Source of the DNA: Fibrobacteria bacterium
GTDB lineage: Bacteria; Fibrobacterota; Fibrobacteria; UBA11236
Direction of reading: 5' to 3'
Length of the DNA stretch: 15,508 bases
NCBI GenBank assembly: GCA_041746255.1
Contig: JBGTHM010000004.1
Span: 1 to 15,508, forward strand
Below are positions 3,001-6,000 of the stretch, piece by piece. Position 1 is the first letter of the stretch; each line of letters opens with the position of its first letter. A program made the position numbers.

Positions 3001-6000
3001 CTTAAGGCTTCTGAAGATTCCGGTTCGCCATGGGTGATGAAAATCCGGCGCGGCGCTTTTCCCGCTCCCTTGATCCACTCGACTATCTGGCCGGCATCGG
3101 CGTGGGCTGAGGAATTTTTCATGGAAACGACTTCCGCCCTTACCGCGATATATTCCCCGTGAATTTTCAACTCTTCGGCTCCGCGCGCCAAGGCGGCTCC
3201 CCGAGTGGATGCGGCTTGATAGCCCGCAAGCAGGATGATGGTATTGCGAAGCGGCGCAAAGGCTTTGAGGTGGTGCAGTATGCGTCCTCCGGTGGCCATG
3301 CCGCTGGCGGAGATGAGAATCATGGGGCCTTTGCTTTGCGAAAGCTTCGCCGATTCTTCCGGTGCCTGCACATAGTGGGCGATCCCGAAAACGTCATCGG
3401 ATAGTTTGGCTCCGAGGGCATGATCGCCTGGATGCTTTGCGTAGAGCTCAGTGGCCGCGATAGCCATGGGGCTGTCTACATAGATGGGGATGCGCGGAAG
3501 CCTTCCCGCATTTTTAAGCTGGTAAAGCAGGTAGAGCAGCGCTTGGGTACGACCAACGGCGAAGGAGGGGATAAGCAATACGCCCGAATCCTTCACTGCT
3601 TTTTGAACCAGCTCCTCAAGTTGGTCCAAGGGGTTGGTGTCGCCGTGAATTCGATCACCATAGGTGGATTCCACCACCAGATAATCGGTTTCACCCGGTT
3701 TTTCGGGAGGCGGGAACATGGGATCGTCCGGACGCCCGAGATCTCCGGAAAAAGTAATGCTGACGTCGGCATGGCTTAGGCGTAGACTGGCAGCTCCGAG
3801 AATATGGCCGGCCTTGAAGAAGGACATTTCCAAGCCATCGCGCAGTGGAAAGGGAATATTCCAATCGACCGCCCGAAACAACCGCAAACTTTTTTCGACA
3901 TCGTCGGAGTCGAACAATGCCTCGGGATTCCGATGCTTGGAATAACCTTTGCGTCGGGCGTATTCCGCCTCCTCTTCCATGATTTTCGCGCTGTCCATCA
4001 ACAGGATGCGGCAGAGATCGCGGGTGGCCGCGGTGCAATAAACCGTGCCGTTGAAGCCCTCTTTGACCAAGCGGGGGAGATACCCGGAGTGGTCAAGGTG
4101 CGCGTGGGTGAGGACTACCGCGTCGATGGTTTCCGCTGCCACGGGAAAATGAGCCCAGTTTTTCAACCGCAGCGCTTTGAGCCCCTGGAAAAGTCCGCAG
4201 TCGACCAACACCTTACGGCTTTGGTATTCAATCAGGTATTTAGAGCCGGTCACTGTACCCGTGCCGCCCAGAAATGTCAACCGCATAATTGTCTTCTCCT
4301 CGGAAAATTCCACTTATCTCGACCCCTAAGAATAGAATTTTACGACAAGATTAAATGCCTGACGGGTTCCGTTGACTTTGCAATCCAAATTGATTTGCTT
4401 AATATATGAGACGTCGCAACTTTTGGAGAAGCATTCATGAAAGTTCCCTTGACCATCTCTTACCATGGTATCGAAAAGCGTGAGGATATTGATGCCTTGA
4501 TTCGCGAAGAAGCGTCCAAGCTGGAGCGGTTCAACGATCATATCAACAGTTGCCGCATTTCCATCGATCAGGTAACGGGGCGTATCGAAAACGGAGGCTA
4601 TCGCATCACAATTGACATGCGCGTGGCTCCAGGCCATGAAATCGTGGTCAAGCACGAACCGAAGGATTCCAAAGAGCAGCCGGCGATTCAAGCCATCATT
4701 CGAGATGGATTCAAAACCGCTCGTGAACGTTTGAGACGATTGAGCGAACAGCAGCGTCAGGAGGTGAAGTCCCATCCGGAGCAGCAGGTACAGGCCGCCA
4801 TCGCTCGATTGCAGGACGATCATGGATTCTTGCGCAGTGCCGACGGTCGCGATATTTACTTTCATCGCAACTCCGTGATCGACGCCGATTTCGACGATCT
4901 GCGCATTGGAGCCGGGGTGGCTTTTTCCGAAGAAATGGGCGAGAACGGTCCCCAAGCGTCTTCGGTCAGGCTGGTTGATGCCCGGGGTGGATCGCGATAA
5001 ACTTGAGAATAGCGATTTCGAAATCGCCCTTCAGAACGAATATGTCCACTACAATATCCACACATCCCTTTTCTCCAATGGAAATTTCCATGGAAAATCC
5101 CAATAACCTGTCACAGGCTTTAGTTATTCTGGATGAAAATCGGAAAATCCTGAAATGGAGCGAAAAGGCCCGGAAAATTTTCGGCTGGCTGGATGAGGAG
5201 GTGGAAGGCAAGGAATTGCTGTCCCTAATATTTCCCGAAAAGCCCTCGGAAATCGATGAATTGAGCCATAAGCTTTTTGGAAGCGGCATGTCTTATACCT
5301 TGTCGCAACGTACCACCGAGGTCGTTGTCCGGCATCGCGACGGGGAGAGCCTTGCATTAGAAATAAATGTGGTTCCTTGTCTCATAAACCAAGAAAAGCG
5401 GGTATACGTTTTCATCCATGACCTTGCCACCGGAAACTGGGCGAATCAAAACAAGCGGATCCAAATGGCAATTACCAACCTACTTGCCCGCTCTCCCCGT
5501 TTGGACGAAGTCTTTCCGCAAATCCTGGCGGCATTCTGCCATCACACCGCGTGGGTATTCGGCGCCTTTTGGAAGCTGGAACTGGGAGGGGAATGGGCCA
5601 ATTGCGTGCATTCCGAAAATCGGATTCCCGGCGAGTTGGATGAATTTTCGAATAGGACACGCACCTTGGTGATTAAAAAGGGAAATAGCCTGCCCGGAGG
5701 GGTTTGGGAATCGGAGGAAATGGTTTGGATAACAGATATCACGGGAAGGGAATTTTTCATTCGCGCCCCTGAAGCGAAAGCCGGAGGCCTGGAAACCGGT
5801 TTCGGCATACCCATCAAGCAGGGTGTCCGGTTTTTCGGGGCCTTCGAGTTTTATTCTCGACAGAGCTTGTTTCCCGATCCCGAATTTCTGGGCCTGATCC
5901 ATTCTTTTTCGGAACAGCTCAGTGAGTATATCACTCTTAAAGATGCCGAAGAGACCATACGCATCAATGAAGAACGTTTTCGCGCGGCAGCCAAATATGC

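Follow-up and report, generated by a model that had tools for sequence, protein, structure and literature searches.

Hibernation factors and cold-shock domains

A ribosome hibernation factor that carries a cold-shock domain (CSD) has been described in Coxiella burnetii under the name HPFcold. It is the product of CBU_0020 and was solved by cryo-EM (PDB 9T0Z, 9TZE; Stuart et al., Nat Commun 2026;17:7049, PMC13392368); according to the data availability section of that paper, 9T0Z is the C. burnetii 30S subunit with HPFcold. In the complex as reported, the N-terminal domain sits in the tRNA cleft of the 30S subunit and the CSD lies in the mRNA exit channel, where it holds the anti-Shine-Dalgarno (anti-SD) 3' end (PMC13392368). 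The same class appears as the HPF-Csp chimera in a survey of 46,015 genomes (Chan et al., bioRxiv 10.1101/2025.11.04.686544), in which chimeric HPFs are reported to coexist with a canonical HPF and to occupy variable loci.

Four other known kinds of protein resemble the one described below in part. Short HPF/RaiA proteins (YfiA) of E. coli and its relatives share the decoding-cleft site by homology but are about 95-113 aa long and have no OB domain; for cover of the anti-SD sequence the short HPF is described as needing RMF, and RaiA as using its C-terminal tail (PMC13392368). Long HPFs (Firmicutes, Thermus and the cyanobacterial LrtA type) likewise place an N-domain in the decoding cleft and join it by a linker to a second domain. 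This C-domain (PF16321), however, serves dimerisation and pairs ribosomes into 100S particles; a role in ribosome preservation is also reported for it (PMC13392368). RMF, described as covering the 16S anti-SD region in hibernating ribosomes (PMC13392368), is a functional analogue, but this small protein is unrelated, works in trans together with short HPF and promotes dimer formation. Finally, cold-shock proteins of the CspA family have the same OB fold and RNP-like aromatic residues, but they stand alone and are about 70 aa long.

An HPFcold-type gene in a fibrobacterial genome

The window analysed here is a stretch of 15,508 nucleotides from the genome of a member of the Fibrobacteria. On its plus strand a gene at 4437..5000, beginning with ATG, encodes a protein of 187 aa plus a stop codon. 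Pfam places a Ribosomal_S30AE domain (PF02482) at residues 6-106 (E 2.5e-7, 31.7 bits against a cut-off of 23.7) and, after a short linker, a CSD (PF00313) at residues 127-179 (E 6.4e-8, 32.8 bits against a cut-off of 27); this is the HPFcold architecture, in a protein within the 180-220 aa or so of that class. The dimerisation domain PF16321 of long HPFs is absent from the protein in Pfam. The S30AE score is modest. None of the NCBIfam HPF/RaiA models matched the protein at E<=1. The NCBIfam Csp models, whose cut-offs are 82-144, gave scores no higher than about 28 bits (best, 28.1 against 120), so that its CSD, the C-terminal third of the protein, falls below the curated scores for free cold-shock proteins.

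When the protein was compared with PDB sequences by phmmer, the best match was the chain of 9T0Z and 9TZE named "Ribosome hibernation promoting factor" (E 8.4e-19). The alignment to chain 9 of 9T0Z is one stretch over both domains (query 1-177, chain 6-178), and the next-best match was a cold-shock protein at E 1.7e-4. A profile built from 34 family members found the 9T0Z chain at E 3.1e-46, with the next match at 4.4e-11. The protein and CBU_0020 agree in the order S30AE, linker, CSD and in length (187 and 183 aa). On these alignments the gene product very probably belongs to the HPFcold class of ribosome hibernation factors, and its binding to ribosomes in this organism is predicted.

Of 1171 candidates in a homologue search, 1019 proteins reached E<=1e-3; the 120 that were listed all carry both PF02482 and PF00313 and are 181-217 aa long. 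These figures are identical to those of the first-pass annotation of this DNA, which had also placed the two domains at the same residues, with slightly different E-values. That annotation had read the protein as a distinct class of factor in which the CSD replaces the dimerisation domain of long HPFs and docks on 16S rRNA, a reading that matches the C. burnetii structure as published (PMC13392368). It went astray in calling the fusion unstudied, a new third architecture with no experimental study behind it: the two-domain design is real, but it was already known, both as HPFcold, solved on the ribosome in 2025-26 (9T0Z/9TZE, PMC13392368), and as the HPF-Csp chimera (bioRxiv 10.1101/2025.11.04.686544). 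The locus thus adds little to an architecture, a ribosome placement and a wide, patchy distribution that are already in print. It does provide a clean example of HPFcold outside the Proteobacteria and Cyanobacteria, in a free-living host.

Predicted fold

An AlphaFold2 model of the protein (mean pLDDT 82.1, pTM 0.53) has two folded domains whose relative geometry is uncertain. The N-terminal HPF/RaiA domain, with its long C-terminal helix, covers residues 1-112 (4437..4772, plus strand), its predicted elements being strands 5-10, 36-46, 54-63 and 67-73 and helices 16-29 and 84-112. Residues 111-116 (4767..4784) form a flexible linker, the sole internal segment with pLDDT below 50; the published HPFcold linker is given as six residues (PMC13392368). 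The CSD follows at residues 117-181 (4785..4979) as five predicted strands. Among PDB entries up to 2026-04-08, Foldseek matched the model to RaiA (8rd8_D, TMt 0.87), to 4hei_A (0.89) and to cold-shock proteins (about 0.8), reproducing the fold matches of the earlier annotation for both domains. By VIA-align against a library of 48,161 representatives, residues 3-111 matched RaiA 8rd8_D with Z 15.4 and an rmsd of 1.6 over 102 residues, and residues 111-181 matched a Unr CSD with Z 11.2 and M. tuberculosis CspB with Z 9.8. Across the E. coli-type short HPF/RaiA proteins the N-domain fold is the same, at Z 13.4-15.4, rmsd 1.6 and TMt 0.87-0.89. Compared by hhalign, with the family profile, to the short HPF of its own genome, the N-domain has a 5-residue insertion in the loop between beta2 and beta3; a difference in this loop is likewise described for CBU_0020 against CBU_0745 (PMC13392368), so the insertion is a further likeness to the Coxiella protein.

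Residues of the anti-SD face

In C. burnetii HPFcold, Y142 is reported to stack on U1534 and F132 on C1535, with which R123 pairs; K155, in the motif KLEVG, contacts helix 40, and R177 contacts G924-925/C1530 (PMC13392368). The rRNA-contact residues had been left unchecked in the first-pass annotation; we mapped them by HMMER alignment to the 9T0Z chain. All three residues in contact with the tail bases are conserved in the sequence alignment, as R124 (codon 4806-4808), F131 (4827-4829) and Y141 (4857-4859); with H143 (4863-4865), which stands in place of Coxiella N144, their codons delimit a predicted anti-SD-binding face at 4806..4865 on the plus strand. The two basic contacts are not kept: K155 is replaced by D154 and R177 by S176, so that the published backbone clamps are missing at these positions, and arginines (R156, R178) lie two positions further on in each case.

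The wider family puts these replacements in perspective. G130, F131, Y141, F142 and H143 were invariant in an alignment of 34 sequences, as the first-pass annotation had found in a smaller one; among 198 distinct members, G130 and F142 are still invariant (198/198 each), Y141 and H143 are kept in 197 each and F131 in 183, and position 124 is K or R in 157. Position 154, acidic in the window protein, is K or R in 129 of the 198. At position 176, 187 members have T or S and a single one has R, so the R177 contact is specific to Coxiella. The K155/R177 clamps, features of the Coxiella and Legionella proteins, mark the Legionellales subclade rather than the whole class, K155 only partly so. Such a table of residues is usable as a small guide to mutagenesis, separating the general contacts (the tyrosine, the phenylalanine and the basic residue of the anti-SD face) from those peculiar to Coxiella (R177 and, in part, K155).

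Taken with the published complex, these features suggest how the protein could work. By homology to the C. burnetii factor, the N-terminal HPF/RaiA domain would sit in the 30S decoding cleft of ribosomes at rest and obstruct the path of tRNA and mRNA. The short flexible linker would allow the CSD to extend as far as the mRNA exit platform, where, beside bS21 and uS7, an aromatic face (F131 and Y141, together with R124) would grip the single-stranded anti-SD 3' tail of 16S rRNA. The outcome would be an inactive 70S ribosome with its most nuclease-exposed RNA end covered, a job done elsewhere by RMF or 100S dimers, both lacking in this genome. We infer ribosome binding in this organism, protection from nucleases and a timing in stationary phase or stress from the comparisons given here.

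The gene and its neighbours

The gene is flanked by a divergently transcribed gene for a beta-CASP nuclease and, downstream, by one for a PAS/GAF hybrid kinase. Across 80 family loci the nuclease recurs in 2 and the kinase in 4, and the largest neighbour cluster is found in 12; we therefore rejected the flanking genes as conserved operon partners. The genome also encodes a second, short HPF of 107 aa on another contig (C92), between the sigma-54 gene (rpoN) and the HPr kinase gene (hprK); the earlier annotation had likewise placed it next to rpoN. The HPFcold locus is thus variable while the short HPF stays at the conserved hpf locus, as described for chimeric HPFs in the survey of Chan et al. 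The two proteins are similar at the level of profiles only (hhalign, E 4.9e-5); BLASTP found no similarity between them (E 0.84).

The neighbours and the altered clamps together allow several variants of the mechanism. Since the subclade of this protein has D154 and S176 where Coxiella has its clamps, with arginines two residues further on (R156, R178), and since this is the sole CSD of the cell, the domain could bind the 30S platform in another way or double as a general RNA chaperone; or the beta-CASP nuclease, the PAS/GAF hybrid kinase and the hibernation factor could form a signal-controlled module of nuclease and protector specific to the genus. Even taken jointly, we consider these variants unlikely.

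Hibernation repertoire, selection and the free-chaperone reading

Three kinds of hibernation factor were found in the host genome: the short HPF, HPFcold and a homologue of Balon. RMF had no match in the genome, and the long-HPF C-domain PF16321 had none at E<=0.1, a search whose control matched in 8 of 14 genomes. The CSD of HPFcold is the only one detectable in the genome, which is scored 100% complete. This repertoire mirrors that of Coxiella, where HPFcold also coexists with a short HPF, carries the only CSD and has neither RMF nor a long HPF beside it; Balon is the addition here. The hosts differ: that of the window is free-living and sigma-54-bearing, belongs to a CSD-poor lineage, possesses Balon and has the gene at a beta-CASP/PAS-GAF kinase locus.

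That the cell has a single detectable CSD, with its RNP-like aromatic residues kept, might suggest that the protein works chiefly as a free RNA chaperone like the cold-shock proteins, with the S30AE domain as an accessory and no part in ribosome hibernation; 9 of 40 other carrier genomes also have a single CSD match. CSDs are, however, absent from 19 of 31 related genomes, so that such a chaperone seems not to be required in this lineage. Canonical cold-shock proteins (E<1e-20) occur in 21 of the 40 carriers elsewhere, which argues that the fusion is no stand-in for them; on the same count we rejected the idea that HPFcold is tied, as a general rule, to the loss of free cold-shock proteins. 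The low scores in the NCBIfam Csp models speak against a free chaperone too, as does the homologous protein reported on the ribosome (PMC13392368). Nor does selection favour the CSD: the copy in another genome of the same genus is 85% identical, with dN/dS of 0.064 over the whole gene, 0.035 over the N-domain and 0.11 over the CSD. The gene is under purifying selection (dN/dS about 0.06), at least as strong on the N-domain as on the CSD. A free chaperone is accordingly very unlikely, and we retain the reading as a hibernation factor.

Control region and the question of cold

The intergenic region upstream of the gene (4314-4436) is merely 123 nt long. A Shine-Dalgarno-like GGAGA, read from the sequence, lies at 4425..4429 on the plus strand, 7 nt upstream of the ATG. 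A block at 4397..4405 on the same strand is conserved with the same-genus genome, the intergenic region being otherwise diverged, and its sequence (TGn followed by TAATAT) is that of a possible extended -10 promoter element. A scan for the sigma-70 consensus gave no site in the intergenic region, this candidate included; its single match falls within the nuclease gene, on the minus strand. For the sigma-54 -24/-12 pattern 18.4 matches were expected and 21 obtained, all of them outside the intergenic region. A scan for terminator-like sites found none 3' of the gene. The 123-nt intergenic region had no Rfam match, and its folding energy was no better than that of shuffled sequences (z +0.75). 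The mRNAs of the cspA type have a long structured leader, a feature absent from the window gene.

These results bear on the suggestion, made in the first-pass annotation, that hibernation might here be temperature-responsive. The family name of the domain invites the idea that low temperature turns on expression or binding, as does the name HPFcold chosen in the cryo-EM paper (PMC13392368). The short intergenic region, with no Rfam match and no excess of structure, gives the idea no support, and cbu0020 is reported to be induced 10.5-fold on the transition to the stationary small-cell variant, not by cold (PMC4766238). Our analysis brought out no link between the family and cold. A switch specific to cold is therefore highly improbable, and we keep to a hibernation factor that would act in stationary phase or under stress.

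The 16S tail as the predicted target of the cold-shock domain

CSDs bind many single-stranded sequences. The domain might therefore bind mRNA or another RNA instead of the 16S tail, tethering particular messages to silenced ribosomes or regulating translation, and the change of two Coxiella rRNA backbone contacts to D154 and S176 would fit such a role. Yet R124, F131 and Y141, the counterparts of those that read the anti-SD bases in Coxiella, are conserved, and the proposed partners are present: the 16S rRNA of the genome ends in a canonical anti-SD tail (ACCUC), CACCUCCUUUCU, and a gene for bS21 was found (74.8-75.6 bits). The conservation analysis in the cryo-EM paper, moreover, finds the surface of the family most strongly conserved on the anti-SD face (PMC13392368). 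We regard another RNA target as extremely unlikely, and the 16S tail as the predicted ligand. Practically no weight can be given to a CSD that dimerises and drives 100S pairs in the manner of the long-HPF C-domain: Stuart et al. allow that the CSD may dimerise, and the genome has neither RMF nor long HPF, but the particles they describe include no ribosome dimers and the CSD of the solved complex is occupied by rRNA, bS21 and uS7 (PMC13392368).

Origin of the gene

Among the 31 related genomes, the full-length gene is confined to the genus of the window. In a tree of the family the window protein and its same-genus copy share a long branch, with a path of at least 1.6 to any named sequence, and therefore no donor lineage can be named. 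Horizontal transfer probably brought the gene into the genus as a ready-made fusion. The GC content around it is 0.485-0.49, no different from that of the rest of the window.

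Domain architecture and class assignment

The ORF at 4437-5000 (+) starts with ATG, lies 7 nt downstream of a GGAGA sequence and encodes a protein of 187 amino acids. Pfam recognizes a Ribosomal_S30AE domain at residues 6-106 (E 2.5e-7, 31.7 bits, cut-off 23.7) and a cold-shock domain (CSD) at residues 127-179 (E 6.4e-8, 32.8 bits, cut-off 27). In NCBIfam the cold-shock models matched only below threshold (best score 28.1 bits, cut-off 120), and no HPF model matched. An AlphaFold2 model computed from a 34-sequence alignment had a mean pLDDT of 82.1 and a pTM of 0.53; its sole internal low-confidence stretch, residues 111-116, lies between the two domains. 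Foldseek, searched against entries to 2026-04-08, matched RaiA (8rd8_D, TMt 0.87), HPF (4hei_A, TMt 0.89) and cold-shock proteins (about 0.8), and VIA-align gave Z scores of 15.4 for the N-domain and 11.2 for the CSD. The S30AE-CSD fusion reported in the first-pass annotation is confirmed. The homologue figures given there were reproduced exactly: 1019 homologues at E<=1e-3 from 1171 candidates, with both Pfam domains in all 120 of those listed and lengths of 181-217 aa.

That annotation had also taken the fusion for an unstudied new architecture, a claim overtaken by two published descriptions. Stuart et al. (Nat Commun 2026;17:7049, PMC13392368; preprint 10.1101/2025.11.08.686982) describe CBU_0020 on the Coxiella burnetii 70S ribosome, with its N-domain in the 30S tRNA cleft, name the class of proteins carrying PF02482 and PF00313 HPFcold, and report the fusion from all proteobacterial classes, Cyanobacteria and other phyla. 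In a survey of 46,015 genomes, Chan et al. (bioRxiv 10.1101/2025.11.04.686544) describe HPF fusions with Csp, SigE or CBS domains. Such fusion proteins are reported to coexist with a canonical HPF, to occupy variable loci, often near Balon, and to spread horizontally. The window protein belongs to this published HPFcold class as a new, somewhat divergent member; the architecture itself is not new.

Homology to the solved HPFcold protein was established with phmmer against a sequence copy of the PDB that includes 9T0Z, which is the C. burnetii 30S subunit with HPFcold according to the data-availability passage of PMC13392368. The top match was 9t0z_9/9tze (E 8.4e-19), with residues 1-177 aligned in a single stretch to residues 6-178 of the 9t0z_9 chain; the second-best match was a cold-shock protein (E 1.7e-4). 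With a 34-member family profile this chain again came out on top (E 3.1e-46; runner-up 4.4e-11). The beta2-beta3 loop of the N-domain carries a 5-residue insertion relative to the short HPF of the same genome (profile comparison), and the same insertion is described for CBU_0020 (PMC13392368).

Conservation of RNA-contact residues

In C. burnetii HPFcold, Y142 stacks on U1534, F132 stacks on C1535, R123 pairs with C1535 and R177 bridges backbone phosphates (PMC13392368, supplementary Fig. 3), while K155 of the KLEVG motif contacts helix 40 (supplementary Fig. 4). In the phmmer alignment, the three anti-Shine-Dalgarno (anti-SD) contacts are kept in the window protein as Y141, F131 and R124; K155 and R177 are not, their places being taken by D154 and S176. 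We counted residues across 198 distinct family members, made up of the window protein, 119 database proteins and 78 distinct genome-locus translations. Tyrosine is found at the Y141 position in 197, phenylalanine at F131 in 183, and lysine or arginine at R124 in 157; the anti-SD face is general across these family members. The R177 equivalent is arginine in only 1/198 and threonine or serine in 187/198, and at the K155 equivalent 129 members have a basic residue and 34, like the window protein, an acidic one (D 15, E 19). Both contacts are therefore a trait of the Coxiella subclade and not of the class.

In several family members the C terminus is extended and closes with a conserved EPP(L/A)GW-like motif (columns 200-217 of the family alignment A1). 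These members are P0006, P0034, P0058, P0080, P0102, P0105, P0108, P0109 and P0114; those of them that are named are cyanobacterial. Neither the window protein nor the Coxiella chain has the extension.

Hibernation factors and cold-shock domains of the host

The host assembly (4.59 Mb, completeness score 100%) contains two S30AE genes, the HPFcold-type gene and a 107-aa short HPF flanked by sigma-54 and HPr kinase genes. A Balon-type baeRF_family7 gene (G000 contig C14:53218-53670, 114.9 bits) lies on another contig than the HPFcold-type gene, so the three kinds of hibernation factor are not clustered. The expected partners are present: the genome encodes bS21, and its 16S rRNA ends in a canonical anti-SD tail. 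Neither RMF nor a long-HPF C-domain was found in it.

We consider the following mechanism highly probable. What the sequence analysis shows is the architecture, the homology, the kept contact residues, the partners in the genome and the purifying selection; binding, protection and timing are carried over from the solved homologue. The N-domain would block the 30S A/P-site region on idle ribosomes, the linker would give the CSD reach to the platform, and F131, Y141 and R124 would grip the single-stranded anti-SD tail next to bS21 and uS7. The outcome would be a silent 70S ribosome with the 16S 3' end shielded from nucleases. With RMF and long HPF both missing, no other factor is predicted to shield this end in the host.

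The CSD of the HPFcold-type gene is the sole CSD match in the host genome, a parallel to Coxiella, which is reported to be without a dedicated cold-shock protein (PMC13392368). A single CSD is not a rule among carriers of HPFcold: a single match was found in 9 of 40 other carrier genomes, and canonical cold-shock proteins (E<1e-20) in 21. Of 31 relatives, 19 have no CSD at all; the host lineage is simply CSD-poor.

Distribution, selection and origin

The relatives were searched with both the single window protein and the family profile. Full-length HPFcold copies occur in 2 of the 31, the host genome and its one same-genus relative; the remaining matches are domain-level, to cold-shock proteins or short HPFs. 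Between the two copies dN/dS is 0.064, with dS (1.42) near saturation; the gene is under purifying selection. BLASTP found no similarity between the N-domain and the resident short HPF (E 0.84); the fusion was therefore not made in the host genome. In a tree of 80 family members the window and same-genus copies share a long branch, with no nameable donor.

Gene neighborhood

A stand-alone beta-CASP metallo-beta-lactamase nuclease of 460 aa (2931-4313, -) is divergent from the HPFcold-type gene. Its top NCBIfam matches, type VII CRISPR Cas14 (387 bits, cut-off 800) and aCPSF1 (270 bits, cut-off 580), are sub-threshold. Directly 3' of the HPFcold-type gene lies a hybrid histidine kinase of 962 aa (5003-7891, +; start codon uncertain) with three PAS domains, GAF, HisKA, HATPase and receiver domains. 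In the same-genus genome these genes follow one another in the same order, from the chromate transporter through nuclease, HPFcold and PAS/GAF hybrid kinase to the arsenic genes, with 67-69% nucleotide identity over the HPFcold-kinase arrangement. Across 80 family loci, a homologue of the nuclease occurs near HPFcold in just 2 and one of the kinase in 4. This genus-specific pairing, together with the changed backbone contacts and the sole CSD, might point to another mode of docking or an additional role of the protein, a reading that we regard as improbable.

The commonest neighbors of HPFcold genes are a PRTase-domain protein (12/80), Balon-like baeRF (5/80) and RtcB (5/80). The PRTase-domain protein (about 221 aa, PF00156) lies upstream on the same strand, mostly directly adjacent, at loci L010, L013, L023, L024, L035, L040, L041, L043, L044, L045, L051 and L064. 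As these represent 10 Cyanobacteriota and 2 Planctomycetota, the association crosses phyla; no mention of it was found in the portions of the HPFcold literature consulted. The RNA ligase RtcB adjoins HPFcold in three Gammaproteobacteria, where the genes are convergent and <100 nt apart, and two Cyanobacteriota (L054, L061, L066, L047 and L076). RtcB reportedly ligates the 16S 3' end back in place after cleavage (PMC5416887) and is among the hibernation-gene neighbors in the Balon paper (PMC10901736).

Regulatory signals

The HPFcold-type gene and the divergent nuclease gene have the 123-nt region between them in common. Consensus scans detected no sigma-70 or sigma-54 site in it. A TGn+TAATAT block at 4397-4405, which is conserved in the aligned same-genus sequence, may represent an extended -10 element. 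The upstream region has no Rfam match, and the predicted fold of the leader is no more stable than those of shuffled sequences (z +0.75); thus nothing indicates a cspA-like thermosensing leader. No terminator-like site was found 3' of the gene, in the interval before the kinase, and co-transcription of the two is possible. In Coxiella, cbu0020 is reported to be induced 10.5-fold when cells pass into the stationary small-cell form (PMC4766238), and appears as RaiA, with growth-phase-linked changes, in a proteome paper (PMC6759588).

Other genes in the window

A cytochrome P450 gene (805-2151), a PIN-domain toxin (2188-2667, -) and an overlapping ParD-like ORF of 95 aa (2606-2893, -) form a block, 805-2893, to which blastn found no counterpart in the part of the same-genus genome used for comparison. 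As the chromate-transporter and nuclease genes are directly adjacent there, the block looks like an insertion. An arsenic cluster at 8044-11600 comprises an arsenite methyltransferase (329 bits, above cut-off), ArsR, an ACR3-type carrier, an LMW-phosphatase-type ArsC and a 240-aa protein. The last is without a Pfam match and matches only the C-terminal part of the SO2930-family dihaem cytochrome model (73.8 bits, cut-off 313). The gene at 11642-12769 (+) encodes a GluR0-like ligand-gated potassium channel of bacterial type, a 375-aa protein in which a periplasmic-binding-protein fold is joined to an ion-channel pore (SBP_bac_3, Lig_chan, Ion_trans_2). Neither a 396-aa antisense ORF (12882-14072) nor a 171-aa ORF (14383-14898) has a family match. 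Two integrase-core (rve) transposase ORFs (12828-13670 and 15092-15508, both -) are located at the window's AT-richer end, which has a GC content down to 0.40-0.44.
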